From UHGV virus genome UHGV-0197780: 52,279 nt of DNA, one strand, 5' to 3'. Within the stretch, counting starts at the first letter, position 1, and every line of letters starts with the position of its first letter. Positions 1 to 52,279 of this stretch are shown piece after piece. The notes beneath the pieces are model-generated. The model was not told the DNA's origin. It ran no database searches and was given only the letters and a program-made list of their open reading frames with translations. The position numbers were made by a program, and so were the translations under genes. This DNA is from a virus.

Positions 1-116
1 ATGATTTCTGAAGCTTTAAACCAAAATGAACCCCAATATTTTTTCAAGTATTATATGTTAATGTTAAAACCCGCCATTAGGCGTACAACTAAGCTTGCTT
101 TAATGGCGGTTTTTAT

Positions 117-2417
117 TTACCCTAAGGCCTTATTAATTTGTTTTAGGAGTCTTCCGACGTTTCCAATTCTATTATCTTTATCGGCCTCTTCTCCCAGCCA
201 TTCTTTGGATTTTCTAAGATATCCTCGAGCCTTAGCATCCCTATACTTTCTCCAATATTTCAGTGACTGATCTGCATATGACATAGCATGAAATGCCTTT
301 CTTAAATCAGCATCATGGCATTGCTCTAACGACTCCATACTTTCATCTAATGCTTTTCTAACATCATTTGAATCCACCCTGCCAATATTTGCTTTAAACT
401 TAATAATCGCATAAGAGTTTCTGACAGACCAGTTACCGCTTCCACTTTTTGCTATGGCCTCATCAATAACAATAAATGCTCTTTCATGATTGCCTCTTCT
501 GCTTAAATAGAGGGCTTTCTGTTGCAAGTTGAAGGGAGATGCATGTTTCCTAAAGATAATGTCATATATTTTTTCACCATCACTGGTTTCTGGAAATGCT
601 TTTTCAAATAACCGAGCATCATAAGCGCGTCTTTTAAAAGCATCATAATTAGGAATGCAAAAACGTGATACATTATTGTGGAAGTTAACTAACATACAAG
701 CAAGCTCTTTTTCTGGAGCTATAGTTGTAATGTGTTCCGCCAGTAGATTTGAGCGAATTGAGAAGCAATCCTGATCACTCTCAGAATATTCACCAACATT
801 CTCGGATAAACAACTGCTCAATATCTTTATTAAGGCATATATTTCTTCATAGCCAACACGCCCCCCCTGAAAATAACTGTAAATAATATCCATTGATGTC
901 ACACTTCGGCTATTATGAAGATAACAAGCCAGCAAGAAAAGTTGTACTAACTTCTCATCTCTTTTCTTTAGCTCATTCAGAACGTTCTTGAATCTTTCTT
1001 TAATGCTTGGAGTGCGGCAGTTATTTTCAATTAATTCAAACAATGAATCGCCATCTTTTTTATTATAAAATTTTCTTGACTTTAAATCCACTGGTATATT
1101 ATCCGTAATCCCTTGGCAATCAGCATTAGTTATTTGAGTAATATCAATTATCTCGATGTTTTTCCTTAAAAAGTTCGACCTAGAAGCTGAGAGGTAAGCA
1201 TAATCCCTTTCAGCTATAACTAATCTTATATTTGGCTTGAGAGAAAGGTTGTTAAGAGCATCCATTGAAGTTTGCATGTTATCTACAAACAGAAGTACAG
1301 GAATATTTTTTAATCTTGTAGCCAGAGTTTCAGCTTTAGTTATAGATATATCCGAAAGAAATAATTTGATGCCATTAAAGTCATGAAATGCTGCCAACTG
1401 CATTAATAGTGTTGATTTCCCTGTGGCAGGCCCGCCTGTAATTAGTATATTCTTTCCGCTGTTTATATACTCTTCAACAATGGAGTAATAACTCAATCTA
1501 ATTACGCGAGATGAGTAAATATCACTCCAGGAAGGATTTGCTCCTTGGTAAAAGTCATTAATTGATCGTCTTTCTATCTCTGAATGAGACGGTACAGAAT
1601 ATTCCATAAACGGATTTTGATACTTATTATTTGTACTATCAAGGGAATCAATACTTTCGAAGCTAGATAAATAATCTAAAAACTCCTCTGTATCTGCACG
1701 TATTATCTTAAGGTCTAGTGATTGATAATATTCAATCTCACCCTCATCAACAAACTCAGGATGTACAATTATCCAAGCATTTTTCCTGTTTTTCTCATTC
1801 AGTGCATCTGCAAATACCTGTAAAGTTCCCGCATCCTTTAGGGCATATCCCCAAAAAACAGTTGGAAATTTATTCATTACAGATTTTAAATAATTCCACT
1901 TTGTTGGTTCACTTGAAAAAGCATTAGCAATATCAAGGTCGCCAAATATTAAATGAGACTCAGGATCACTGACAGAGCCGTGTAAATAAAAATAATCTAT
2001 AGCAATTTTATCTCTAAAGCTTACGCCATTAAACATTGCATTATTAACATATTTGTGAGGATTTCCTTTGAATATTTTCTCTACAAGATTATCTATATTT
2101 GTAGTAAATATATTTTTAATATTTACATTAGCTAGTTGCTGATATTTAGAACTAAAATCGCCAACTTCGTATCTAGCTCGTATGTAACGGTAAAGGTCCT
2201 CTCTCCTAGATTTAGAGATTAAAGTACACAATTGAGGTAGTTGTAGTATGGGTGGAGAACCTGGAAATTCTTTGAGAATTTCCTTCCTAAGCCCATCACC
2301 AATAGGAAGTGTTTTCCCATTTTGATCAGAAGCTAAAACAGAAAATCCAGCCCCAGTAAAAATATTAATACCTTCACGCAAAACTCGTTCAAAAGTATTT
2401 TTACTTTCAATTTCCAT
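117..2417 (-). CDS. SIR2-like (NADase-type) domain fused to P-loop NTPase (STAND/AAA-like) with a helical C-terminal region. Single-gene antiphage defence candidate (Avs5 / SIR2-STAND-like).
   Basis: The N-terminus carries SIR2 motifs GAGFS, TTNIDNL and LHGS. Downstream are a Walker A (GGPATGKST) and a Walker B-like (VLLFVDN) motif, then an alpha-helical C-terminal third. The listed ORF begins with TTG at 2459; the ATG at 2417 is preceded by AGGAAA. The region is AT-rich (1-2900) against GC-rich phage flanks. Confidence 0.6.
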   Translation of the reverse strand: MEIESKNTFERVLREGINIFTGAGFSVLASDQNGKTLPIGDGLRKEILKEFPGSPPILQLPQLCTLISKSRREDLYRYIRARYEVGDFSSKYQQLANVNIKNIFTTNIDNLVEKIFKGNPHKYVNNAMFNGVSFRDKIAIDYFYLHGSVSDPESHLIFGDLDIANAFSSEPTKWNYLKSVMNKFPTVFWGYALKDAGTLQVFADALNEKNRKNAWIIVHPEFVDEGEIEYYQSLDLKIIRADTEEFLDYLSSFESIDSLDSTNNKYQNPFMEYSVPSHSEIERRSINDFYQGANPSWSDIYSSRVIRLSYYSIVEEYINSGKNILITGGPATGKSTLLMQLAAFHDFNGIKLFLSDISITKAETLATRLKNIPVLLFVDNMQTSMDALNNLSLKPNIRLVIAERDYAYLSASRSNFLRKNIEIIDITQITNADCQGITDNIPVDLKSRKFYNKKDGDSLFELIENNCRTPSIKERFKNVLNELKKRDEKLVQLFLLACYLHNSRSVTSMDIIYSYFQGGRVGYEEIYALIKILSSCLSENVGEYSESDQDCFSIRSNLLAEHITTIAPEKELACMLVNFHNNVSRFCIPNYDAFKRRAYDARLFEKAFPETSDGEKIYDIIFRKHASPFNLQQKALYLSRRGNHERAFIVIDEAIAKSGSGNWSVRNSYAIIKFKANIGRVDSNDVRKALDESMESLEQCHDADLRKAFHAMSYADQSLKYWRKYRDAKARGYLRKSKEWLGEEADKDNRIGNVGRLLKQINKALG

Positions 2418-2908
2418 TAAAGGTTTCCTATATTTATTTAGAGATTGAAGGTTTTTCAAAAGAGATCATTGCCTTTAGTTGGATTTTCTGATCAGAAAAG
2501 CCTATGATTTTAACTTTAACGTTTATTCTACCAATTTTCAAATATTGATTAGAAAGATTCAAAAATGATATAAGCAATTTAAATATAATACTTTTATGAT
2601 ATTTCAATCATATTAACTAAAAACAATGTTCATTCTGTCCGTAAAGTTAAACACATAAATAAAAGAAATTACAACTTCGAGTCCGTGCAGTCAAGAGTCA
2701 CCACTGGGGGTGATGGCGGGGGACAAATTTTGACAACTCATACCCATCACTAATTGACTGACCTGTTCGCGGTTGGTTAACACACTATTATGTAATCTAA
2801 GTCCGCTCCTAGCACTCAGCGGACATCTCAGCTTTGCCTCACCCCGGAATAATTAAACTTAGCTTTGACATCCTGTACCAGCTGCAGTTGATTCTATTTA
2901 AGGCATAA

Positions 2909-3349
2909 TCAGCACCTCTCCGCATTGCGCAGGCAGCGGTTACGCATTTTGGCAAGCAACCAGAGTTCGTTTGCTGTTGTAGCCATCCCAAGCGTCGATG
3001 TGTAAACAGTCGCAGCCCGGCGCCACAGCTTTTTGTCTTCCAGCATCTTCGCCAGGGACAGTGCGTCTTGGACTTTTTTCACATATTCTTCAGATAATTG
3101 TGTTGCAGCCTGCGGCAGGGTAACATCGGGAACCTCAACGCCTGCAACAACCCGGTAGACATACTGGCAGCCGTTATGGGTACGATGGAGTTTTCCCGCG
3201 GCATGTAGCTGCCGCAGTAAGTTACCTGCTGTACTGGCTTGCAAGTCCAGCGCATCACAGACATCCTGCAGGACGCATTCTGGCGTCCGGCTAACGATGG
3301 CAAGCACCATCTGCGCTTTGGTTACTTTGGTTTTTGATTGTTTGGTCAT
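2909..3349 (-). CDS. hypothetical phage protein, N-terminal winged-helix-like
   Basis: The ORF lies downstream of the P-like gene on the same strand. Its ATG at 3349 is directly preceded by the recurring CGAGTTTTGACC motif. The ORF track began it at a TTG inside that motif. Confidence 0.45.
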   Translation of the reverse strand: MTKQSKTKVTKAQMVLAIVSRTPECVLQDVCDALDLQASTAGNLLRQLHAAGKLHRTHNGCQYVYRVVAGVEVPDVTLPQAATQLSEEYVKKVQDALSLAKMLEDKKLWRRAATVYTSTLGMATTANELWLLAKMRNRCLRNAERC

Positions 3350-3362
3350 GGTCAAAACTCGT

Positions 3363-4049
3363 TTACTTGGTTAAACCTGCCGCCTTGCGGCGTTTGTACT
3401 CTTCCATCAGAACCTGCGCTGGCGTCGGCCCTGCTGGATGTCTCGGTGCTGCCAACTGCTGACGAATTGGCGGAATCGAAAACCCGTTAGCCAGGTGTTT
3501 GGTCCATTTCGTGAGTAAGTTATCTGCCAGTTTTTTCAGCTCTCCCTCCGTCAGGTTCCTCTCAACTCCGGTTCTGCGCATTTCAATGCAAATGTGATAC
3601 AGAACATCCTGTTTCCATGGGTATTTGTCGCTTCCCGAATATCGGTAAGACTCGTTTCTCCAGCGTTTGTACTCCGCCATCACTGCATCGGATGTCAGAT
3701 TGAACGGGTTAGCACCGCTAGCAGATACCAGCGCGACGAACTCAGCGAGATCCGGCGGCCATGTGCTGCCCGCGGCGCAACGCTCCATGCACTGCCGGCA
3801 AACCAGCGTAATCTGGGCTTCACTCATCGACCCAATCTGAGCTATCCAGAGTTCTGATGGTTCCTCTCCGTTCTTCAGGATCCATCGGTTCGAAAAGATT
3901 TCGCCCATCACTTCCCATAGGCGCCACGCCGTTTCTACGGCCGTCTGTTCCTGCAGCTCGCAACCGTTGCTCACGGGCGGCTCGAATCTGTTGAACAGCT
4001 CTGGATGCTGCTGGCTCTGCTCGTACTCCCACATGATCGTTACCCCCAT
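3363..4049 (-). CDS. lambda P-like replication protein (DnaB helicase loader)
   Basis: The translation aligns by eye with lambda gpP (…YPWK…, [12 protein letters not shown] vs MEQVNAGMRVARRQ region). It sits immediately after the O-like gene. Confidence 0.65.
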
Positions 4050-4839
4050 TCACTGGTTTTTTCTGGCGGATTTCCGCACGGTTAAGATGTCTTGCTAGTT
4101 TTTGCTCCCACTGGACCTGGTGAAACGCCCTGCCTTCAGCCTGCCAGTACGCGATGAAGCTGCTCAACTCGGCAGCAAGATTTATCCCCGGTCTTAATGG
4201 CATTCCCCAAATCGTTGCCAGTCGGGGAAAATCCTCGGAAGGTTTCCACCCGAAATACATCACAAATTTTCCGAATGCTTGTGTTTCACCAAGAACTATT
4301 CCTGGTTGATTCGGATAGTCAGGCACAACTGGTTCGACCAGAACCTTATGTGTGGGGGTTATATCTTTTGGTTCCTCTGGTAGATTCCGGATCCCGTTTT
4401 TGGGATCGTTTGACGGAAAAAACGGGATCGTTTGGTTGTTTTGCGTACAGGAAACAGTCCCGTTTTCGGGCGCCTTTTCTGCTGTAACAACCCCGTTTTC
4501 GTGTGTGTTTAAACGATCCCGTTTTTGGTAATGTTCCCGTTTTTGGGTGTGTTCAATTTCTGCAACGCTTTCTTCCACACCAAGAAGTCGGTAAACCGGG
4601 ATTTGTTTAGTCTTTCCACGCCGTTCACCTGTATCTTCAATAAGCCCGATCGAAACCAGATACTGCAGGCTCGACTGGACCGTTTTCTTATCCAGCTCAG
4701 TTGCTTCTGCCAGCGCAGGAATGGATGGAAAAGCACAGAGATCAGCTCCGCACATGTCGGCCATCCAGGTTAGAACAGCTTTTGCAGAGGACTTCCCTGT
4801 CTTGACTTTTTTGGCCCATCGCATCGCGTCAATGCTCAT
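3820..4839 (-). CDS. lambda O-like replication initiator with intragenic iterons (origin)
   Basis: The N-terminus is an HTH. The middle is a low-complexity linker encoded by repeated CCCGTTTT/AAACGGGATCG elements. A strong GGGGGG SD precedes the ATG at 4839. The frame stays open 230 nt into the P-like gene. Confidence 0.6.
4380..4560. repeat. iteron cluster (ori-lambda-like) inside the O-like gene
   Basis: There are at least 5 copies of aaacgggatcg / cgatcccgttttt in direct and inverted orientation within 180 bp. Confidence 0.6.
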
Positions 4840-4883
4840 GAAGCCCCCCTATTTTCTGTACGGTACTCATTGTCAAAACTCGA

Positions 4884-5438
4884 TTAAAAAAACTGTGGCG
4901 CTACGGCGCTGATGCTCGCCAGAAGTGGTCCCGCCGCATCTGCAGGAAGCATGTTAAAAAGTGCAATTGCTGCCTCCCGAATTTCACGCTCTAACTTCTG
5001 CAACGGAGCACCAAGCAATTTTGCCTGGTGCGCTTCGCTACACTCTCTGATTGCTTGAGCCACCAGCTCGCTTTCAGTCAATCCACGTTTCAATCCGTGT
5101 TTGCGCGCAATCTCAATAGGCATCGCATCAGCGATCGCTCCTGAAAGCTGCATGACGTAGCTGGTGTACTTCTCTGATCCGGATTCGTTTTTCAGGTAGC
5201 GGTACAGATTCTGTTTATTGACGTTTATTCCGCGACCGTTTTGTTTTCTCCATTGCTCATCCACCAGCTGCGCGATGTGGTCCTGTGCACGTCCAGGTAA
5301 AGTCGACTCCCATTCCTGAACGGCAGCAAAAATTGCTCTACTCTTCATCCGAGCCCGGCGTAGACCGGAAAACTGATTTTCTGAGTTCAGTTGCAGGCCC
5401 ATTACCGGGTTATGCTTTTTAAAAGAGATGGTTTGCAT
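4884..5438 (-). CDS. phage regulatory protein in cII position (CII/CP76-like or YdaT-like)
   Basis: The ATG at 5438 has a perfect AAGGAG SD. It lies between the Cro-like and O-like genes. The call rests on position only. Confidence 0.35.
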   Translation of the reverse strand: MQTISFKKHNPVMGLQLNSENQFSGLRRARMKSRAIFAAVQEWESTLPGRAQDHIAQLVDEQWRKQNGRGINVNKQNLYRYLKNESGSEKYTSYVMQLSGAIADAMPIEIARKHGLKRGLTESELVAQAIRECSEAHQAKLLGAPLQKLEREIREAAIALFNMLPADAAGPLLASISAVAPQFF

Positions 5439-5440
5439 AC

Positions 5441-5662
5441 TTACTCCTTCGGTAATCCATCCGTTGGGTTTGGGTAGAGATCTGGTCTGAGTTCATGTGG
5501 AGTAACTTTCCACTCCAATGCCTTACTGACTTTCAGAACCAACTCGCCGGGAACTTTATGTTTGAACCAACCATTTACTGTTTGTGCTCGCCGATTAAGC
5601 CGCCGTCCGATTTCCGATTGGCTACACACGGCAAGTAATTTTTTTTGAAGGGATGGCTTCAT
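5441..5662 (-). CDS. Cro/YdaS-like HTH regulator
   Basis: The motif QSEIGRRLNRRAQTVNGW is a YdaS/Cro-type HTH. It is divergent from the CI-like gene. The probable ATG at 5662 has a GTGGAG SD; the listed ORF starts at a GTG at 5674. Confidence 0.6.
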   Translation of the reverse strand: MKPSLQKKLLAVCSQSEIGRRLNRRAQTVNGWFKHKVPGELVLKVSKALEWKVTPHELRPDLYPNPTDGLPKE

Positions 5663-7725: not shown

Positions 7726-9864
7726 ATGAACAACTACCCGTATCTCATTAAAGCTAAGGCAAAAGCAAACGAAGCGAAAAGCCTCTTCTGCTGGTTCTCT
7801 GCTAAATCCGATTCTCGCGCCGAGCGCAAAATCCTGGACATCCTAGAAGACGCTGAAATTAACGTTGGCCGCGGCGCCAGCCATCAGCTGCCGATCCGCA
7901 CCAACTGGCTAATCGTTGATGACTTACCGGAAGAAGGTGTACTGGATGATACCTGGTGCGATCGTTACGAGCTTGGTGGTAAAGACGGGCTGACATGGAA
8001 AAAAATCGTTGCGCAGGCGGCTGCTGAACCACAGCCCTCCAGTAAACCAGAAAACGATATCTCTCCTGCAAATAGCGATGAAGAGGACTATTCGAACAAT
8101 GAAGAAGCACTCTTCAACCTGGCAGAAATGTCATTCCGCACGCAGCTGCTTGCCCAGTATATGGCCGACGAACGTCACGTGTATCACATTAGCATTCCTC
8201 ATCGTAACCGCCTTTCAGCGATGGAAATGGATACGGATAATCACGGTGTGCAGAATCTGCTGCTGACGGCAGAAAATATTCCGGAGCTTAAAAAATATGA
8301 TATGCCTGGCCTGTGGAAATTTACCAGTGCATTTAAGAGCGTATTTCCTGCGGGGAAACGCCATGAGCTCGGCAAGCAAATTCAGTTCGCCAAATTGTGG
8401 CTTGAAACGTCTCACATTGACCGCGGGATCCTTACAAAGGAATGGGCTGCTGGAAACTATATCACCTCAATAAACAAAACCGATACTGGCGCCAATGCTG
8501 GTGGCGGTAACAAAACTGACCGCAATCCGGATTATCAGCATTCGCTGGATACTCTGGATATAGAGATCGCCCTTGCGACGATGCCTATGGATTTTGATAT
8601 CTATAATTTTCCGGCATCAGTCCACCGCCGCGCGAAGGAAATAGTACAGAAGAAAGAAAGTCCATTTAAAGAATGGTCTGCAGCATTACGGAGCACACCA
8701 GGCATCCTTGATTATTCCCGTGCAGCGATTTTTGCACTGATCAGGGAAGCATCCAGTGGAATAACTCCTTTTCCAGATCGGTTGCGTGGCTACATCAACG
8801 CGAATCTGACTGAACATAAGCATGATACCCCAAGCGCTGAAATGCTTGCCAAGGCGGGACATATTCCATCTGCTGCAGTCACTCTGGATGCAATAAACCA
8901 AGCAATCGCCGGAGAGGATAGCAGCGCAAAACTGGAAACACTCTCCTCTGACTTTAAAGCAGTTGGCACCGAACTCGTAAAAGAAGCTCAAAAGCAGCGT
9001 CCGAACGCTAATCAGGTTCTGGCCGCCGAGCGCGGCGAATATGTCGAAGGGATTAGCGACCCTACTGATCCGAAGTGGGTAACCGAAGACCTTCCCAAAT
9101 CAAGGCAACCTGAGGTTTCAAAAATTGGGGACGGAGTATTTTCCATTGACGGTCTTGTTGACGTTACGGGCAAGGTTAACCAAAAAGAAAAAACAGATGA
9201 AGTTGTTCATCAAACGGATGCTGTAGATATTGAATCCGGTCCTCATAATAAGGAGGAAGATCAGCCTATTGATTATGTTCACGTTATGGTTGATCTGGAA
9301 ACCATGGGTAAAAAACATAACGCCCCTATCGTCGCTATTGGTGCGGTTGTTTTTGACCCGGCAACCGGCTCTATTGGAGAAAGTTTCTATAAAGTCGTAT
9401 GCCTTGAATCCTCTGTGAACTGGGGCGCCGTAATCGATCCATCTACTGTTATCTGGTGGCTTAAGCAGTCCTCCGAAGCACGCTCTGCGATCGTAAATGA
9501 TGATGCTATCCCGTTGCTGGATGCATTACTCCAGTTCAGAGAATTTGTCTCTGATAATGTTGCTGGCGGGAGCAAAAAGGCACAGGTATGGGGTAACGGT
9601 GCGTCATTCGATAACTCCATTCTGCGTTCTTCTTACGATTGCATTGCTGAAGATTATCCGTGGGAATACTGGAACGATCGGGACGTACGAACAATGGTAG
9701 AGCTCGGCCAGGCCATTGGCTTCGACCCCAAAACAACGATCCCGTTTGAAGGTGATCGTCACAATGCTCTCGCTGATGCTATTCATCAGGCCCGCTATGT
9801 ATCAGCAATCTGGCAGCGAATAATTTCCGGCAATCAGGTGCTGCAAAAATTGATGCAAAACTGA
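7726..9864 (+). CDS. phage exonuclease with a C-terminal DnaQ-like (DEDDh) 3'-5' exonuclease domain
   Basis: The C-terminal ~180 aa carry VMVDLETMG … GASFD … H…D motifs of DEDD exonucleases. An AAGGAG SD precedes the start. It occupies the position of the recombination genes in the pL operon. Confidence 0.55.
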   Translation: MNNYPYLIKAKAKANEAKSLFCWFSAKSDSRAERKILDILEDAEINVGRGASHQLPIRTNWLIVDDLPEEGVLDDTWCDRYELGGKDGLTWKKIVAQAAAEPQPSSKPENDISPANSDEEDYSNNEEALFNLAEMSFRTQLLAQYMADERHVYHISIPHRNRLSAMEMDTDNHGVQNLLLTAENIPELKKYDMPGLWKFTSAFKSVFPAGKRHELGKQIQFAKLWLETSHIDRGILTKEWAAGNYITSINKTDTGANAGGGNKTDRNPDYQHSLDTLDIEIALATMPMDFDIYNFPASVHRRAKEIVQKKESPFKEWSAALRSTPGILDYSRAAIFALIREASSGITPFPDRLRGYINANLTEHKHDTPSAEMLAKAGHIPSAAVTLDAINQAIAGEDSSAKLETLSSDFKAVGTELVKEAQKQRPNANQVLAAERGEYVEGISDPTDPKWVTEDLPKSRQPEVSKIGDGVFSIDGLVDVTGKVNQKEKTDEVVHQTDAVDIESGPHNKEEDQPIDYVHVMVDLETMGKKHNAPIVAIGAVVFDPATGSIGESFYKVVCLESSVNWGAVIDPSTVIWWLKQSSEARSAIVNDDAIPLLDALLQFREFVSDNVAGGSKKAQVWGNGASFDNSILRSSYDCIAEDYPWEYWNDRDVRTMVELGQAIGFDPKTTIPFEGDRHNALADAIHQARYVSAIWQRIISGNQVLQKLMQN

Positions 9865-9916: not shown

Positions 9917-10162
9917 ATGCTCCAGATGTTAACCCTTGAAGAGTGGGCAAACGAGAAATACAGAAGCAATCCTCCAAGTGTTTCCACTCTCAGGAATTAT
10001 GCTAAACAGAATATGTTTTCTCCCCCAGCCAAAAAAGAAGGTCGATTCTGGCGCGTCAGGGAGGATGCTGAGTTGGTCGGTACATTGACCACTCCAGTAG
10101 TAAAGAAAAGCGACCCTGTTCTTTTGCAGAGGATTTTGAACGATGGCTGCCAGACCACGTAA
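9917..10162 (+). CDS. excisionase-like protein
   Basis: Small basic protein directly upstream of int, overlapping it by 20 nt. The ATG at 9917 has a GAGGT SD. Confidence 0.5.
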   Translation: MLQMLTLEEWANEKYRSNPPSVSTLRNYAKQNMFSPPAKKEGRFWRVREDAELVGTLTTPVVKKSDPVLLQRILNDGCQTT

Positions 10163-11270
10163 AAATAATATATCTATTCCAAATTTATACCCGCTCTACA
10201 GTAGAAAGGTTAATAAAGTATACTGGCGTTATAAGCACCCGATAACTGGTAAGTTTCATAGTCTAGGTACAGATGAAGCAGAGGCCACGGCAATAGCTAT
10301 TGAAGCAAATAAAAGACTGGCGGAACAACAAACCCGCCAGATAATGGCAATCACTGACAGAATATCCACCAACTCAGGAAAATCAATATCAACTAACACC
10401 TGGCTTGAACGTTACTGGAAGATTCAGCAGGAAAGATTAAAGTCCGGAGATATTAAAGAAAACACTATCAAACAAAAAGCAAAACCAGTATCTCTGCTTA
10501 AGGAACGTGTAGGAATGAAATTAATATCCGCTGTCAATGTTCGAGATGTTGCGCAAATTCTTGATGAATATTTAGCGGAGGGACAACCCAGAATGGCTCA
10601 GGTCATTCGCTCTGTCCTAATAGATGTTTTTAAAGAAGCTCAGCATGCGGGAGAAGTACCTCCTGGTTATAACCCTGCACTAGCAACTAAACAACCTCGT
10701 AGAAAGATCACTCGCCAGCGCCTCACTCTTGAGGAATGGCAAAAGATTTTTGATATAGCCGATGAAAATCACAAATACATGGGGAACGCCATGCTTTTAG
10801 CCATAGTAACAGGACAGCGACTAGGTGATATATCCCGTATGAAATTCTCGGACATCTGGGACGATCATCTACACGTTGAGCAAGAGAAAACCGGAAGCAA
10901 AATCGCTATACCATTAGCTCTGCGTTGCAACGCAATCAACTGGAGCCTACGAGATGTAATCAGTCGTTGCCGGGATTATGCAGTAAGCCCTTATTTGGTT
11001 CATTTCTTTAGAACCACCTCACAGGCTGAGCGAGGAGCACAGGTGAAACCCAGAACACTGACCATGAACTTCAGCAAGGCAAGGGACAGTGCCAATATTG
11101 ACTGGGGACAAGGTACACCGGCAACTTTCCATGAACAAAGATCGCTTTCCGAGCGGTTATATAAAGCCCAGGGTATAAACACGAAAGATTTACTTGGACA
11201 CAAAACTCAACAACAAACGGATAGGTACCATGATGATCGAGGTAAGGGGTGGACAAAGGTGGCCTTATGA
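10143..11270 (+). CDS. tyrosine integrase (lambda Int family)
   Basis: The C-terminal catalytic region carries R…HExR…Y, ending …DRYHDDRGKGW. It is adjacent to the icd fragment. Confidence 0.8.
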   Translation: MAARPRKNNISIPNLYPLYSRKVNKVYWRYKHPITGKFHSLGTDEAEATAIAIEANKRLAEQQTRQIMAITDRISTNSGKSISTNTWLERYWKIQQERLKSGDIKENTIKQKAKPVSLLKERVGMKLISAVNVRDVAQILDEYLAEGQPRMAQVIRSVLIDVFKEAQHAGEVPPGYNPALATKQPRRKITRQRLTLEEWQKIFDIADENHKYMGNAMLLAIVTGQRLGDISRMKFSDIWDDHLHVEQEKTGSKIAIPLALRCNAINWSLRDVISRCRDYAVSPYLVHFFRTTSQAERGAQVKPRTLTMNFSKARDSANIDWGQGTPATFHEQRSLSERLYKAQGINTKDLLGHKTQQQTDRYHDDRGKGWTKVAL

Positions 11271-11694: not shown

Positions 11695-13191
11695 TCAGTA
11701 CTCTTTTGTTTGAACCTGCTTGTTCAAATCACGCACTTGTTTTGTTAACTCCTGCACCGTAAGAACAAGATCCGCGATGATGGCCGTATGGTCTACGTTA
11801 AGGATATTGATCTTCTCGCCATCAATTTCTACATCGCCGCTTTGAAAGGTGTAAATCGGGTCAACTTTTTCAGCTTGTTGAGCAATAAATCCACGCCTAC
11901 GGCGTGTTTCGCCTTTCATGTTGAACTCACATACCCCCAGCGCGTTAATACGCCTGGAGGCCCCTTCCTGGGATTCCGTAAAATCCTTTTTCAGCCGCAC
12001 GTCTGAGCCAGTGGTCATAACATCACCTTTAGGGGTGGAGATTGTCCCTCCGGTGTAAAAGAGCCAGGCATCTTTTTGGCCAAAACCGTCCATATACAGT
12101 ACCACCCGGTGGTTGTACCCAACGTATTCTTCAAGGTAGAAACCACCCCACGCTCCAGACGTGTCGCCGTTTCCTCCACGCCCTGTCATGCGGGACCGGA
12201 CTCTGCCACCGGAAACTAACGCGCCGATGGCAGGGGAACCGAAGTCGGTCTGCTGGGACACACAGTCATAGCGACACTGCATCCAGCTGCCGATGTCGGC
12301 CGCTTGCCCCACCCGCAGGTCTCTGTCTACCCCTAGATGACTTCCCTGAACACTAAGTTGATCTGCGGCTGTAGTGATGATGCGTGCGGTATAGTCGTTA
12401 GCACTTTTGTTATGATGAAAATCGATGTACGGAGTGCCCATCGACAGCTCTAACGCCTGGGAATACAGCTTGCCCTTTGCCGTATTATCGAAACCACCAC
12501 CGACAACCAAATCTCCGGGCAACGTCGTCTGGTTATTGGTGCCAATAACGAGGATGTCATCAAAGGTGTCTGCCGGTGATACAGTGGTAGCTCTTGAACG
12601 CTGAACCCTGAACGGTGTTCCCGAGCCAACGGCAATCGTCCCGCCTTGCCCCTGTTTTTTGAGCAGAGCCAGATCTGAATTCTTACCGAGAATAAAACCG
12701 GCATTATCGCTGGTTATAACCTGCGAGCCGTCGAGTTTGTTTCCTCCGGTGAGTTTTGCCAGCGCGTTAAGATCCGATGCTTTCGCCATCCCGGCTATCG
12801 CCGGCACGGTCACCTGCTTTCCTGTGATCGGATCAGTCAGGGTAATATTGCCGCTGCCGGTCAGGGCCATCGACCAGCCCTCCACTACACTACGCCAGAA
12901 TGCAAACGCGCTGGCCAGCTGGTTAGCAAACGACGAGGTGCTGGCGGTTTCAGCGGTAATAATGCCGTAACTGGCACCGGAAAATGCGGTGGTGATATTC
13001 CGGGTCAGCGTCAGTTGCGTGTCGCTGTCCACGGATTTGATCGCATACAGGTCAGCACTACCGCTGCGGTAGACCACTAGAATCGACCCGGGCAGTATCC
13101 CCAGCGCCTCCTGTGACCATTTTGTTGTCGCACCTGTCACCCGTGCCTGCGACGCGGCACCCGTGACGGTACCGACTTCATACATCGCCAT
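11695..13191 (-). CDS. side tail fibre protein with C-terminal S74-type intramolecular chaperone
   Basis: The body is Gly/Ser/Thr-rich fibre sequence. The C-terminus has GSDVRLKKDF…INALGVCEFNMKG, which fits the SDxRxK autocleavage motif of endosialidase-type chaperones. An AGGAGG SD precedes the start. Confidence 0.55.
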   Translation of the reverse strand: MAMYEVGTVTGAASQARVTGATTKWSQEALGILPGSILVVYRSGSADLYAIKSVDSDTQLTLTRNITTAFSGASYGIITAETASTSSFANQLASAFAFWRSVVEGWSMALTGSGNITLTDPITGKQVTVPAIAGMAKASDLNALAKLTGGNKLDGSQVITSDNAGFILGKNSDLALLKKQGQGGTIAVGSGTPFRVQRSRATTVSPADTFDDILVIGTNNQTTLPGDLVVGGGFDNTAKGKLYSQALELSMGTPYIDFHHNKSANDYTARIITTAADQLSVQGSHLGVDRDLRVGQAADIGSWMQCRYDCVSQQTDFGSPAIGALVSGGRVRSRMTGRGGNGDTSGAWGGFYLEEYVGYNHRVVLYMDGFGQKDAWLFYTGGTISTPKGDVMTTGSDVRLKKDFTESQEGASRRINALGVCEFNMKGETRRRRGFIAQQAEKVDPIYTFQSGDVEIDGEKINILNVDHTAIIADLVLTVQELTKQVRDLNKQVQTKEY

Positions 13192-45305: not shown

Positions 45306-45713
45306 TTAGTGGACGACAATTTCCATCTTTTGCCCCAACGCTGATAGCGCTTTTTGGATCGTATCGATTTTGGTGCTGTGACCAAGAGACACGATGCGCT
45401 GCACTTCCTGTGGGCGCGTGTTAATCATGCGGGCGAGATCAGCATTGCTGGTGTTGGTGCTGACCAGACGGTTTAACAGCAATACTTTAGCTGCCACGCT
45501 GGCCGGAACCTCAACAAACGCATCACCTTCTGCTGATGGAGCGGGAATCTCCCGGCGGTCGTCAAAGTAAAAATCAAACGCCGTCACCAGGGCATCTTGC
45601 GCCATTTCTAACGCTTCCTCCCTGGTCTCTCCTCCCGTCATTGCCTCTGGGATATCCGGAAAGAATACCGCCCAGCCGGTTTCGTCATGCTCAAAAATTA
45701 CCGGGTATCGCAT
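45306..45713 (-). CDS. hicB: HicB antitoxin (RNase-H-like N-domain + C-terminal HTH)
   Basis: The N-terminus MRYPVIFEHDETGWAVFFPDIPEAMTGGETREEALEMAQDAL is the canonical HicB N-domain. Confidence 0.8.
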   Translation of the reverse strand: MRYPVIFEHDETGWAVFFPDIPEAMTGGETREEALEMAQDALVTAFDFYFDDRREIPAPSAEGDAFVEVPASVAAKVLLLNRLVSTNTSNADLARMINTRPQEVQRIVSLGHSTKIDTIQKALSALGQKMEIVVH

Positions 45714-46022: not shown

Positions 46023-46333
46023 TAAATAACAGAGGGAGCTATTGCCCAACACCTCTACGCCACGGTGAGGCGAAGCAAATCAATTATGCGATATACGACG
46101 ATGTGACAAGGGTACTGATGCAATGCATCTCGCGAATACCCCCTGTCGTATCGCCGGAAAGCAAAAACCCCGCCGAGCGGCAGGGTTCTAATGGTTAAGC
46201 GGTGTGTCGAAGTGACCACTCTTAACAGATTACGATAGTTTTTGCGTACGCGTTAGTGTTTTTATATGATATTAGAAAAATCAACACGGAAGTACAAAAC
46301 GTGAGCGAGATCATAAAATTAAGAGGGCTGATG

Positions 46334-48085
46334 AGTTCAAAAACCATAGAGCCGTTCATCCGACACATTAGGTTTCCTTTCTATAAAAATCTTGAAGAGT
46401 TCAGTGTAATTAATTTTAATTATCCTATCACAGCATTAGTAGGACAAAACGGAACAAATAAGAGTTCGGTTTTAAGGGCCCTCTATGGCTCTCCTAATAA
46501 CTACTCTCTTGGTAGCTTGTGGTTTTCCACTGACATTGATGAAATAAAAGATGATGGAAGATCAAGATTCATATATGGTTATTTCGATTATTCAATCAAA
46601 GAAGTTGTCGAAGTAATTAAAACAAGGATCGTTGACCCTGATGATCCTGATCTTTGGGAAACATCTAGACCACTTGCAGGTGATGGCATGAAAAAAATGC
46701 CAAAAAATATTGTTTCCCCAAATCAACAAAAGTCGCGATGGAAACAAATTGATAAATTAGTTACCTATATCGACTTCAGGGCATCAATAAGTGCTTTTGA
46801 CAAATTTTTTTACCACTCTGACTTTAATCTTTATCCTAAGAAAACTTTTTTACGTAAAAGAAGCCACATATTAAAAGATGTAATTGAAAACAATTCATCC
46901 AGCTGCAAACCTTTCAAGGGTAAAAAGGAGAGGTTATATAATAACGAACTTCTTTCCAAAGAGAAAGTTGAAATTATAAGCCATATTTTAGGTCGAACTT
47001 ATAAAAGCATCAGACTAGTGGAGCATGCCCTCTTCACTAATGATAAAGCATCTACAGTTATACTGGAATCAAACAGTCTTAACTATTCTGAAGCCTTTGC
47101 AGGCAGTGGTGAATTTGCAGTAACTTTATTGGTTAATCAGATAATAAACGCCCCAAATGCTTCTTTAATCTTATTAGATGAACCAGAAGTTTCGCTCCAT
47201 CCTGCTGCACAAATAAGACTCATGGAATTTTTAAACCAAATTTGTCTTAAAAACAAACATCAGGTTGTTATTTCGACCCATTCGTCATCAATTGTAAGGG
47301 ATCTTCCTCAAGAGTCTATAAAACTTTTTACATTAAATTCCACAACAGGCAAAGTAAGTATTCTTGAAAATGTTAGTCCAGAGGAGGCATTTTTCACTCT
47401 CGGTGACAGACTGTCAAAAAAAACAATTTTCGTCGAAGATAAACTCGCTCAGAAATTCGTTGAAAAGGCTTTAAAAACTGGTGGTTCAGCTTTAGTCAAT
47501 ACATTTGATATAATTTACTGTCCTGCTGGAGCAACCACTTTACTAGGTAATATTGCTGTCCCGTTATTTTTATCCAATGTAACTAATGCAGTATTTTTAT
47601 TGGATGGAGATCAAAAAACACTTACTGACTTTATAAAGTCCACCCAAATTCCAGAAGACCAAGATCCTGCTCTATCTGAAATATTAAAAAGCATCCTTGG
47701 GTGTGAAATAAAAATTCCGACAGATGGAAATGGCGGCAAACCTAATGAGAAGCAAAAAAAGCTTCTTCATCGTGGATTTATTGATTTCTCATATAATTTC
47801 ATAGGTTATTTACCGGTAATAAACCCAGAGGTTTTTTTAATCGAAAACCTACCTGACTTTTATTTAGATTTAATCAAAGACAAGGACACAGCAGGCCTAT
47901 CACCCAAAGAAATAACCGTGGAAATATGTAAAAATGATATTGGGAGCAATGAAATTACATCAGATGATATATTTGCCACGCAAATCAGAATCCTATCAAA
48001 AATACCTGATAATCATCCTGCATTTATAGAAACAAGAGAGATGCTGAAATTTTTTCTTGAACATGGTATGATCAGGGATAAGTAA
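46334..48085 (+). CDS. OLD-family nuclease: N-terminal ABC-type ATPase + C-terminal TOPRIM (P2 Old / PARIS AriAB-like)
   Basis: ATPase motifs are Walker A ALVGQNGTNKSSVLRAL, Walker B/D-loop LILLDEPEVSLHP and H-loop VISTHS. The C-terminal TOPRIM-like motifs are TIFVEDK (Glu) and VFLLDGDQ (DxD). The ATG at 46334 gives a 583-aa product. The gene is AT-rich, on the opposite strand to the phage genes, and ends 4 nt before the MTase gene. Confidence 0.65.
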   Translation, partial: SSKTIEPFIRHIRFPFYKNLEEFSVINFNYPITALVGQNGTNKSSVLRALYGSPNNYSLGSLWFSTDIDEIKDDGRSRFIYGYFDYSIKEVVEVIKTRIVDPDDPDLWETSRPLAGDGMKKMPKNIVSPNQQKSRWKQIDKLVTYIDFRASISAFDKFFYHSDFNLYPKKTFLRKRSHILKDVIENNSSSCKPFKGKKERLYNNELLSKEKVEIISHILGRTYKSIRLVEHALFTNDKASTVILESNSLNYSEAFAGSGEFAVTLLVNQIINAPNASLILLDEPEVSLHPAAQIRLMEFLNQICLKNKHQVVISTHSSSIVRDLPQESIKLFTLNSTTGKVSILENVSPEEAFFTLGDRLSKKTIFVEDKLAQKFVEKALKTGGSALVNTFDIIYCPAGATTLLGNIAVPLFLSNVTNAVFLLDGDQKTLTDFIKSTQIPEDQDPALSEILKSILGCEIKIPTDGNGGKPNEKQKKLLHRGFIDFSYNFIGYLPVINPEVFLIENLPDFYLDLIKDKDTAGLSPKEITVEICKNDIGSNEITSDDIFATQIRILSKIPDNHPAFIETREMLKFFLEHGMIRDK

Positions 48086-48089
48086 AGTT

Positions 48090-49139
48090 ATGGCGGGTTT
48101 TATAATGAGCAAAAAGATCAGAGTTTTCGATTTTTTCTCTGGCTGCGGTGGCACTAGCCAAGGTCTAAAAACTGCTGGTTGTGAGATTGTTTTTGGCCTA
48201 GATTTTGATTATGACTCAAGCGAAACCTTTAAGGCTAACAATCCTGATGCCGTATTCATCAATGATGACATTAGGTCAGTTGATGTTGCTGACATCTCTC
48301 AATTAGTTGAAACGGCAAAAAAAGATGCAAAGATTCTGTTCTGCGGGTGCGCTCCATGCCAACCTTTTTCAAAGCAAAATCAGAATAAAACCACTTCAGA
48401 TCCCAGAAGAGGTTTGTTATCAGAATTCGGTCGCTTTGTCGAATTCTACGAACCCGATTATGTATTGATAGAAAATGTGCCTGGTTTACAAAAAGTGGAT
48501 GTAAATGACGGTCCTCTCTATGGTTTTATTTCTATTCTAAAAAATAGGAATTACAATCTTGTTTATGGCGTTATTCCAGCATTATGGTATGGTGTTCCGC
48601 AAACGCGTGAAAGATTTGTTTTAATGGCCTCTCTTGAATCTCAAATTCATTTACCGGAGCGCACTCATAATGGAACTGATATTCCATTCGCTACGGTTAG
48701 AGATTGGATTGGTAACATACCCTCTATTGAAGCCGGGGAATCTCATCCGTTGGTGAAAGACCATGTTAGTGCAAAACTTTCAGAGCTGAATTTAAAACGA
48801 ATTAGATGCACCCCTGAAGGTAAAGGACGAGAATATTGGCCAAGAGAACTTTTGCTTGAATGCCACAAGAAGCATACAGGTCATAGCGACGTTTATGGGC
48901 GTTTGGCATGGGATAAACCAGCAAGTGGGTTAACTACACGATGCATTAGTTACTCAAACGGCCGGTTTGGACATCCCGAACAAGACAGAGCTATTTCTGT
49001 TCGGGAGGCGGCCCTACTTCAAACGTTTCCAATAGATTACATTTTTAAAGGCTCCATGCTATCTAAGGCGAAACAAATAGGTAATGCTGTTCCGCCAAAA
49101 ATGGCTGAGTCAATAGGAAATGTTTTTATCAATATTTAA
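48090..49139 (+). CDS. DNA (cytosine-5)-methyltransferase
   Basis: Motif I FDFFSGCGG, motif IV GCAPCQPFS (PC catalytic Cys), ENVPG, QTRERF and motif X GNAVPP. Confidence 0.85.
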   Translation: MAGFIMSKKIRVFDFFSGCGGTSQGLKTAGCEIVFGLDFDYDSSETFKANNPDAVFINDDIRSVDVADISQLVETAKKDAKILFCGCAPCQPFSKQNQNKTTSDPRRGLLSEFGRFVEFYEPDYVLIENVPGLQKVDVNDGPLYGFISILKNRNYNLVYGVIPALWYGVPQTRERFVLMASLESQIHLPERTHNGTDIPFATVRDWIGNIPSIEAGESHPLVKDHVSAKLSELNLKRIRCTPEGKGREYWPRELLLECHKKHTGHSDVYGRLAWDKPASGLTTRCISYSNGRFGHPEQDRAISVREAALLQTFPIDYIFKGSMLSKAKQIGNAVPPKMAESIGNVFINI

Positions 49140-50549: not shown

Positions 50550-50752
50550 CAGTCCCTCCACATCTTCTGTATGTAGGTCCTGTCAATCCGTGGCGGCTTC
50601 TTCGATTCCGGCAACAACACGCGGATCTCCCACGATGCAAAGTCTCTGGATAAGCTCTTCTCAACCACACAGTTATTTTTACGGTATCGCTCCACCAGCT
50701 CTGTAGCCTCAGCCTCTGAAAGCTGCTCGTGTAAAAACCAACTTTTCTTCAT
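50549..50752 (-). CDS. hypothetical 67-aa nin-region protein
   Basis: Its ATG overlaps the upstream stop (ATGA). Confidence 0.3.
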   Translation of the reverse strand: MKKSWFLHEQLSEAEATELVERYRKNNCVVEKSLSRDFASWEIRVLLPESKKPPRIDRTYIQKMWRD

Positions 50753-51141
50753 GGCTGATCACCGAACAGTCGCAAAAACTCAATCGCTCTTTCCCGCGCT
50801 CCGGGTTCTTCAGCGATCATTTCCTGCAGCAGCTGCACGGCGAGCATAGGCTCCTTTCGCCCGACGATGGAAATTCCTCTGGAGACACGGCGAGAGAGTT
50901 TTATAAAATTTTTTCTCTCTAACGCACGCAGATGCAACAGGACAGCATTAGACGAGCTAACGCCGAGCATATCGGCCAGCTCAGATAGCGTAGGTGGGTA
51001 GCCATGCTGATTGATGTAGGCCACCAGCAGATCGAAAACTTCCTGCTGGCGAAAAGTTAGTTTTGAAGACGAAAGCAAACCGGCGCTCGATGAAGGAGCA
51101 CCAGTCTGATGGGATTTTGATACTTCGGGGGTTTGCGTCAT
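50749..51141 (-). CDS. LexA-like DNA-binding-domain protein lacking the peptidase domain
   Basis: [53 protein letters not shown] aligns with the LexA N-terminal wHTH ([30 protein letters not shown]…). There is no S24 Ser/Lys domain. The ATG at 51141 has a GGAGAG SD; the listed ORF is extended from a TTG. Confidence 0.55.
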   Translation of the reverse strand: [130 protein letters not shown]

Positions 51142-51483: not shown

Positions 51484-51717
51484 TTAACAGAACCAGTCAT
51501 CAGCGCTTTCCCAGGTGTCTTGCAGGATTTCCTCTACACGTGTTTTATCTCCGTCCATTCCACCAAGCACGGTCAACCCATCAGAGCTGGCCCGACGAAT
51601 CACAAGACTGCAGTTATTAAAGTTTTGATCCAATCGCCGCAGTAGCTCCTTCTCCAGAGCAGGCACAGCGCCATCCGGCAATTTTTTTTGGCGATCAATT
51701 GTGATTTCCACTTTCAT
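51484..51717 (-). CDS. dinI: DinI-family protein
   Basis: MKVEITIDRQKKLPDGAVPALEKEL…EEILQDTWESADDWF matches E. coli DinI nearly end to end. A GAGGAG SD precedes the start. Confidence 0.8.
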   Translation of the reverse strand: MKVEITIDRQKKLPDGAVPALEKELLRRLDQNFNNCSLVIRRASSDGLTVLGGMDGDKTRVEEILQDTWESADDWFC

Positions 51718-51736
51718 AACTAGCTCCTCACGCAGA

Positions 51737-51756
51737 TACTGTACAAATAAACAGTA
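51737..51756. promoter_or_regulatory. LexA (SOS) box upstream of the DinI-like gene
   Basis: TACTGTACAAATAAACAGTA fits the CTGT-N8-ACAG consensus. It lies 20 nt upstream of the dinI-like start. Confidence 0.7.
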
Positions 51757-52279
51757 TACTTGTTAGTTAAAATGTTCAAGCGTTTAATGCCACTTTTCGC
51801 TAACCCATGCTCATGTTTAGATTGATCTTTTCTCCACAAAGGACGAAACCCACTATCACAGGGATACAGTCATTTTTGTGGTGATCAACACCGTTGATAA
51901 GAAACGATGCTACCTCTGACGCTCCAGACTCCGCTATTGGCACAGAGCGGACAATCTGAATGGGATGAAGGTCTGCTTCGAGCGAGGAGCGGACATTGAC
52001 ATATCTGTTTAAGTGGCCAAATTTAGCTATCCACAACAGTTGTTTGTGGTTGCTCAGGATTATATGCAAAGATCGCCGCTATACAGTTGGCCAGTAATCA
52101 GGGACTGGTTGGTTAATTTTGGTGATAAAATGAATAGATTAGAGTAAAAAAACATAGATTCAAAAGAGGTTATGAGAATATAATTTAACTATATACCCGA
52201 GGGTACCCTTAAACTGATTTTATGCACCCTGCAATGAGCGATAATTAAGCACCAAGGTTTTTCTTAAACCTTTTATTAA

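Follow-up and report, generated by a model that had tools for sequence, protein, structure and literature searches.

A likely Avs5-like SIR2-STAND defence gene carried as cargo by an icd-integrating Klebsiella lambdoid phage

The virus genome UHGV-0197780, a stretch of 52,279 nucleotides (nt) referred to here as the window, carries close to its first position a minus-strand gene (117..2417, including the stop codon) for a 766-residue SIR2-STAND protein. We consider it likely that its product is an NLR-like sensor of the SIR2-STAND (Avs5) kind that acts against phages as a single protein, and that the gene is lysogenic-conversion cargo of a lambdoid phage with its integration site at icd in Klebsiella. 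The protein was observed to have a three-part architecture with invariant catalytic-site and ATP-binding residues, and to be homologous over its whole length to a validated Avs5 family. Its gene is free-standing and followed by a terminator-like hairpin, and occupies a slot in which known defence systems are found in other phages. Its activity, trigger and mode of assembly we infer from EfAvs5 and PaAvs5.

The open reading frame (ORF) list contained one long frame at 117..2459 (-), in which the ATG at 2417 opens the gene for the 766-residue protein. This ATG is preceded 8 nt upstream by AGGA and is the start of the gene called in many public Klebsiella assemblies (P0001, 100% identical). Cluster members of P0001, named 'SIR2 family protein', come from the Klebsiella pneumoniae complex, Citrobacter, Enterobacter and Rahnella. 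The initial annotation had described a protein of ~766 residues in which SIR2 motifs are fused to a Walker A/B NTPase and a helical C-terminus, and all of these elements were recovered. Pfam SIR2_2 (PF13289) matched residues 102-229 at 52.8 bits (cut-off 24.5) and nSTAND_NTPase5 (PF25199) matched residues 288-406 at 50.9 bits (cut-off 34); PF20720 scored 17.7 bits. Since the first two scores lie above their cut-offs, the motif matches are not due to chance.

The SIR2 effector domain (residues 1-250; 1668..2417, -) contains GAGFS (22-26), TTNID (105-109) with the predicted catalytic N107, and LHG (145-147) with H146. The STAND nucleotide-binding domain (residues ~288-425; 1143..1556, -), delimited from the nSTAND_NTPase5 match, residue conservation and the alignment to EfAvs5, contains Walker A GGPATGKST (328-336, with K334) and Walker B LLFVD (375-379), followed by N380. 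Some 340 residues remain after the NTPase. They comprise the helical and winged-helix part of the NOD (nucleotide-binding oligomerization domain; residues ~426-566; 720..1142, -; boundaries approximate) and a putative C-terminal sensor resembling tetratricopeptide repeats (residues ~567-766; 120..719, -). An AlphaFold (AF2) model of the protein (pLDDT 86.4, pTM 0.80) has an all-helical C-terminus.

In an alignment of 50 family members, which range from Proteobacteria to Planctomycetes and include a metagenome bin labelled Hodarchaeales, G22, S26, T105, T106, N107, D109, H146 and G147 of the SIR2 domain were invariant, as were G328, G333 and K334 of Walker A and D379 of Walker B. In 44 of the 50, D379 is followed by Asn, making Walker B a D-N rather than a D-D/E motif (EfAvs5 has D-D). 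This suggests that the protein may be switched by binding nucleotide and hydrolyse little of it, in line with measurements on EfAvs5. R404, which is Arg in 40 members, aligns with the gamma-phosphate sensor R453 of EfAvs5. The NTPase was classified as STAND-type. The top Pfam matches were nSTAND5 and nSTAND3, with no NACHT match at E up to 0.1, and an NCBIfam scan of the protein returned just sub-threshold P-loop noise.

Comparison with known structures placed the protein beside Avs5. With the single protein as query, phmmer found no Avs5 match among PDB sequences. A profile of the family matched EfAvs5 (9JAP; PMC11897194) with an E-value of 4.3e-12 across SIR2 and NOD. Aligning the family with the EfAvs5 family by hhalign gave 99.8% probability, an E-value of 5.5e-28 and 15% identity over 716 columns, pairing columns 18-761 with columns 32-799 of 843. 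Because the alignment runs to query column 761 and template column 799, homology reaches through the C-terminal helical region, where both families have a (S/D)P(Y/H)xxxQxA motif. N107 aligns to EfAvs5 N141, and the Walker residues to K379 and D426. The best Foldseek matches were EfAvs5 9JAP (9.4e-23) and the PaAvs5 filament 9NC9 (1.6e-17), in full-length alignments; DSR2, ThsA and KomC followed far lower, at ~1e-8. These results bear out the Avs5-like domain logic first proposed from motifs.

Like Avs5, the protein is the product of a single gene, with an N-terminal SIR2_2 domain bearing Asn at the catalytic position, a central nSTAND3/nSTAND5-type NTPase and a short helical-repeat C-terminus, and the Walker A Lys, Walker B Asp and sensor Arg are present in both. 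In EfAvs5, N141, K379 and D426 are essential and ATP is bound without being hydrolysed; its filaments activate the NADase and its trigger is T7 gp1.7 (PMC11897194, PMC12931631). PaAvs5 is triggered by JADA and converts NAD+ to ADP-ribose and nicotinamide (PMC11897194, PMC12931631). Similarity to SAMD9 is a published Avs5 trait (PMC12680541, PMC12931631), and structural comparison found that the protein studied here also resembles SAMD9.

A control fragment of EfAvs5 (residues 46-573 of 9JAP, rebuilt from the printed alignment) was scored on Pfam. It did equally well on the models nSTAND3 (33.6 bits) and nSTAND_NTPase5 (33.5 bits). The fragment also served to collect the EfAvs5 family, the members of which bear PF13289, PF25199 and PF20720, the same labels as the family described here. 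PADLOC 2.0 returned no Avs5 match for the protein, and none for the validated EfAvs5 fragment either. Its silence was accordingly rejected as evidence against Avs5 membership. A search of PDB with the EfAvs5-family profile at E<=1e-3 did not recover PaAvs5 (9NC9), the sequence of which may be missing from the set, so that no distance is to be read from this result.

The protein had been called comparatively short. It is indeed 60-80 residues shorter than EfAvs5 (849 residues) and PaAvs5-1 (828 residues), but this is no obstacle to membership, the Avs5 sensor itself having been described as unusually short (PMC11897194). The latest STAND survey dropped post-NTPase regions of fewer than 400 residues when clustering sensors (PMC12803255); since the corresponding region here spans ~340 residues, the clade may have been skipped there.

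Several observations weigh against an Avs5-type function. Identity to validated Avs5 proteins is just 12-15%, so that the trigger, the oligomeric form and even the effector chemistry could differ. H146, the canonical His of SIR2, is retained in the family but replaced by Asn (N180) in EfAvs5. It also lacks the C-terminal tail of ~50 residues that holds the basic end needed for bundling in EfAvs5: the last ~45 positions of the EfAvs5-family profile (800-843) have no counterpart, and in EfAvs5 the last six basic residues of this tail are required for bundle formation and defence (PMC11897194). Accessions of the family are absent from the searchable literature and from the Avs5 homologue table of PMC12931631 (Table S1; Mol Cell 2026), which was built by BLAST from PaAvs5-1 and lists proteins mostly of 707-846 residues (a few given as partial) that are at least ~34% identical to it. 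Literature searches on the accessions, on 'nSTAND5' and on the hotspot described below returned nothing relevant. Beyond the phage slot, inspected homologues (Shewanella, Aeromonas, Chromobacterium and Paludisphaera) stand as lone islets amid housekeeping genes, not parts of multi-system defence islands. Finally, promoter-like sites in the leader of the gene were no commoner than in shuffled sequences and promoter prediction performed no better than chance; we therefore claim no promoter.

The retained His bears on one alternative, in which the same sensor architecture is coupled to a SIR2 domain that is not a bulk NADase and instead ADP-ribosylates or deacylates a target, or makes a signalling nucleotide. 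The family keeps the Asn...His pair of protein-modifying sirtuins, the His of which is lost in EfAvs5; we regard this alternative as unlikely. For the preferred reading as an Avs5-type sensor, the characterized proteins suggest the following course. In the lysogen, the protein would be an ATP-bound, closed and inactive monomer. A protein of a superinfecting phage would be recognized, probably via the C-terminal helical repeats, whereupon the NOD and SIR2 domains would oligomerize (EfAvs5 and PaAvs5 form filaments). Oligomerization would complete the SIR2 active sites, leading to hydrolysis of NAD+ to ADP-ribose and nicotinamide, and the loss of NAD+ would halt infection before progeny are made (abortive infection), protecting the lysogen population and the prophage.

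The family is large and widely distributed. A database search returned 159 relatives, most of them with both Pfam domains; the full-length ones are nearly all of 757-806 residues, with a few up to 831. Their sources include Erwinia, Pectobacterium, Shewanella, Pseudomonas, Aeromonas, Chromobacterium and Desulfuromonas, and further relatives were found in Planctomycetes, Acidobacteria, Actinobacteria and a metagenome bin labelled Hodarchaeales. Searching 1.84 billion representatives exhaustively with a profile gave matches to 493 clusters (50% identity) at E<=1e-30 and 2604 at E<=1e-10; the 150 matches listed were full-length or fragment proteins of the size class of this gene. The SIR2-STAND/Avs5 sensors thereby gain a large clade of wide phylogenetic spread, the function of which is so far predicted.

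The Erwinia homologue adjoins integrases, that of Pectobacterium is flanked by IS3-type and Mutator-type transposases, and that of Pseudomonas has HicAB and a fragment of a transposase close to it. A Citrobacter copy with more than 90% identity (L098 and L099, 9001-13621) stands between icd and a short 3' pseudo-copy of icd, with an HNH gene as its sole companion; the locus looks like a decayed icd-integrated prophage in which the defence gene was kept.

The window itself proved to be the circularly permuted 52.3-kb genome of one lambdoid phage, with positions 12417 and 12418 of the Klebsiella locus L006 (CP044050.1) corresponding to window positions 1 and 52279, respectively. The initial annotation had placed the gene in a 'left prophage'; no second prophage was seen in the parts of the window examined in detail, those outside ~13.5-43 kb. 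The integrase gene lies at 10143-11270, and similarity to the 3' end of icd extends to ~11551. In ten Klebsiella loci, the gene order starts with icd, int, xis, an ExoVIII-like gene (7726-9864 in the window), Rrf2, YdaS/YdaT, an O-like gene with a DnaT domain and a lambda-P-like gene. It continues with a gene for a 146-residue winged helix-turn-helix (wHTH) protein, a 490-nt gap, the SIR2-STAND gene, a 680-nt gap and dinI, and ends with a small ORF, a LexA-DNA-binding protein, DUF968, Q, a variable region and lysis genes. The proposed position after O/P-like replication genes (O-like 3820-4839, P-like 3363-4049, then wHTH 2909-3349) was confirmed. The longest O-like and P-like ORFs, both on the minus strand, overlap by ~230 nt, and the P start chosen in public annotations varies, with predicted products of 154, 181 or 223 residues.

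Local sequence sets the gene apart from this backbone. The AT-rich island noted at the outset is real: G+C content is 0.30-0.37 across 1-2800, against ~0.52 in the adjoining replication genes. The upstream leader had been given as 450 bp. An AT-rich leader exists, but its cargo-specific part is just 383 nt (2418..2800, -), as homology with other prophages ends at ~2801 and 2801-2908 belongs to the conserved phage backbone. The leader includes the AGGA Shine-Dalgarno sequence (2426-2429) and weak sigma-70-like sites (2507-2541). Compared across genera it held no conserved element, a short patch at ~2507-2534 alone being common to the leader of the Erwinia homologue. Directly after the stop codon lies a terminator-like hairpin with a T-run (66..109, -; fold -18.8 kcal/mol, z -3.3 against shuffles), within the first part of the 3' trailing cargo DNA (1..116, -). 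The remainder of this AT-rich trailing DNA (51995..52279, -), which window position 1 joins at 52279 in L006, is without any ORF having family support. For positions 1-3400, an Rfam scan at E up to 1 and a megablast search of complete E. coli genomes gave no match, and megablast against GenBank phages matched the wHTH flank alone.

Because the window is circularly permuted, the DNA to its left, once thought to hold possible partner genes, is its right end, from 52279 downwards. No partner gene was present in the ~400 nt of AT-rich non-coding DNA leading to dinI: the next features are the hairpin, repeats and a LexA box, and then dinI. The two neighbours are backbone genes. On one side is the 146-residue wHTH/PerC-like gene (2909..3349, -), with weak Pfam matches to PerC and HTH_IclR; on the other are the LexA box TACTGT-N8-ACAGTA (51737-51756) and dinI (51484-51717; together 51484..51756, -). 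The LexA box is perfect, with 19 nt between it and the start codon of the phage dinI downstream, and the gene for a protein with a LexA DNA-binding domain follows two genes on (50749-51141).

This arrangement raises the alternative that the gene is not self-contained and needs a partner, adjoining or elsewhere, such as the wHTH protein, DinI or the LexA-like protein. The wHTH gene does lie 490 nt upstream, and SOS-linked genes lie downstream; these neighbours are, however, present with any cargo. A search of IMG/VR with the wHTH protein found 79 prophage loci. Identity was at least 86% in 78 of them and 65% in the other, all but two falling within 86-98%, and the SIR2-STAND gene was present in none. 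Since the wHTH gene is there whatever the cargo, it is backbone and not a cargo partner; its presence upstream, as initially annotated, thus stands, but implies no special link. Moreover, the ten Klebsiella loci and those of seven other genera (Erwinia, Shewanella, Pseudomonas, Aeromonas, Chromobacterium, Paludisphaera and Pectobacterium) have no common neighbour, and validated Avs5 proteins act alone (PMC11897194, PMC12931631). Dependence on a partner is in our view highly improbable.

The same loci revealed what else occupies the slot. In the 55 that have both the wHTH gene and dinI, the DNA between them is of 34 unrelated types, 1.4-6.7 kb long and mostly AT-rich, which together encode 92 protein clusters. 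A PADLOC scan of 70 of the 92 cluster representatives (E up to 1e-5) matched Septu PtuA, PARIS AriA, retron reverse transcriptases with ATPase, CBASS E1-E2, AbiU, AbiL, Thoeris ThsB, DarG and MADS components. That the wHTH-dinI slot is a prophage defence hotspot, as had been suspected from the single window, is strongly supported by this diversity of cargo. The slot is a rich and cleanly delimited source of candidate defence genes, several of its cargoes being without a family match.

Two further slots deserve mention. In a sister prophage (L087, 7725-10160, +), the slot holds a different SIR2 and P-loop protein of 812 residues, which scored 34.5 bits on the hidden Markov model of the family studied here and 20.5 bits on that of the EfAvs5 family; with scores so low it belongs to neither and represents a third SIR2-STAND lineage. 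The slot of Klebsiella phage Kp4865-4 (L011, OK490419.1) holds three ORFs of 259-275 residues (4039-5643, 3106-3924) with no Pfam match and a faint match to the PADLOC candidate PDC-M02B; they are possibly defence cargo of no known family.

A further alternative is that the gene mainly serves the phage, as an addiction or selfish module stabilizing the prophage or through a role in its own lytic cycle, defence being absent or incidental. Its position in the early right operon, between the replication genes and Q, would suit such a role, as would a second cargo island of this phage, in which HicAB and a pair of methylase and ATPase genes are present. Yet the gene is followed by a terminator-like hairpin and differs from the backbone in base composition, and its absence from all 79 sister loci means that it is dispensable for the phage. 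The family also exists outside prophages in many phyla and was kept in the decayed Citrobacter prophage, and its close relatives in architecture are proven defence proteins. We judge a mainly phage-serving role improbable.

The second AT-rich island lies just downstream of Q (46256-49139, +; 45306-45713, -). It encodes a 609-residue OLD/ABC-type ATPase, for which the best PADLOC match was the candidate HEC-04 (1e-35), with other matches to retron ATPase-Toprim, PtuA, AriA and GajA-like proteins. A gene for a 349-residue C5 cytosine methyltransferase adjoins that of the ATPase, and HicB is encoded with HicA nearby. Sister phages have other genes at this position.

A less expected result is the repeat-bounded cassette organization of the slot. 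Homology between this slot and the others stops 108 nt past the wHTH stop codon (2801) and resumes ~280 nt before dinI (~51994), and both limits coincide with 24-nt inverted repeats of the general form GTCCGCT-N10-AGCGGAC. At the left boundary, where the conserved flank of 46 related slots ends, stands an A-type repeat, GTCCGCTGAGTGCTAGGAGCGGAC (2801..2824, -). At the right boundary, where the conserved flank of 54 related slots starts, a B-type repeat (51971-51994) is separated by an 18-nt spacer from an A'-type repeat (51929-51952; together 51929..51994, -). The A-type repeat (GTCCGCT GAGTGCYANN AGCGGAC, centre GTGCCA) and the B-type repeat (GTCCGCT cctCGCTCgaa GCAGAC, centre TCGCTC) are both imperfect palindromes. 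The 34 slot types contain 67 A-type and 35 B-type copies, and in multi-unit slots B-A pairs stand between the units, so that arrays read A-unit-B.A-unit-B.A-dinI. Units encoding a 587-residue GGDEF/EAL-like protein, a 234-238-residue protein and a 428-residue protein recur with varied companions.

We considered that the repeats might act as RNA hairpins or terminators and rejected this: single-sequence folds were unremarkable and the arms did not covary in a compensatory manner (82.5% of cells were paired; in shuffles, 82.7%). They are probably a site acting at the level of DNA. These data allow a tentative joint proposal, in which the SIR2-STAND gene would belong, as a single cassette, to a repeat-bounded array of icd-integrating Klebsiella lambdoid phages that has not been described before, where defence genes are shuffled by an integron-like process or by short-homology recombineering, and its product would stand for an Avs5-like clade (containing the His, with a D-N Walker B and no EfAvs5 tail) with a trigger and assembly mode of its own. 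The Klebsiella prophage copy offers a handy test case for what short sensors recognize and for whether the canonical SIR2 His matters, and also bears on how prophages shield clinical Klebsiella from therapeutic phages.

Among known systems, the Thoeris protein ThsA is a SIR2-SLOG NADase. The protein described here has no SLOG/STALD domain and carries a STAND NTPase and helical sensor after SIR2 instead; PADLOC matches to ThsA were restricted to its SIR2 part (residues 13-217), and no gene for a ThsB/TIR partner was found near it at the Klebsiella loci. DSR1 and DSR2 are likewise SIR2 NADases encoded by a single gene, and bind phage proteins through long helical sensor regions (Foldseek ~1e-8), but they are without a P-loop NTPase module, whereas the protein described here has a STAND NTPase, the Walker motifs of which are invariant. 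Similarity to SIR2-HerA (Nezha) is limited to the SIR2 domain, and no HerA gene adjoins. As to the bNACHT/NACHT-clade bacterial NLRs, the protein gave no NACHT match in Pfam, and NLRP3 and NOD2 are just distant fold matches. Human SAMD9/SAMD9L is twice as long and carries SAM, AlbA_2 nuclease and other domains, so that its likeness is one of fold and not of family membership. As far as its sequence indicates, the protein represents a new member clade of the known SIR2-STAND/Avs5 kind and not a new kind of system. The slot resembles integron cassette arrays in having repeat-bounded units reused in varied combinations, but attC sites are far longer than its 24-nt repeats, and it has no integron integrase close by. 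It also resembles the hotspots of P2 and P4 prophages (PMC9122126), with which it shares interchangeable defence cargo at a fixed site between conserved phage genes, in another type of phage (Klebsiella lambdoid phages that integrate at icd) and at another site, flanked by the wHTH gene and dinI.

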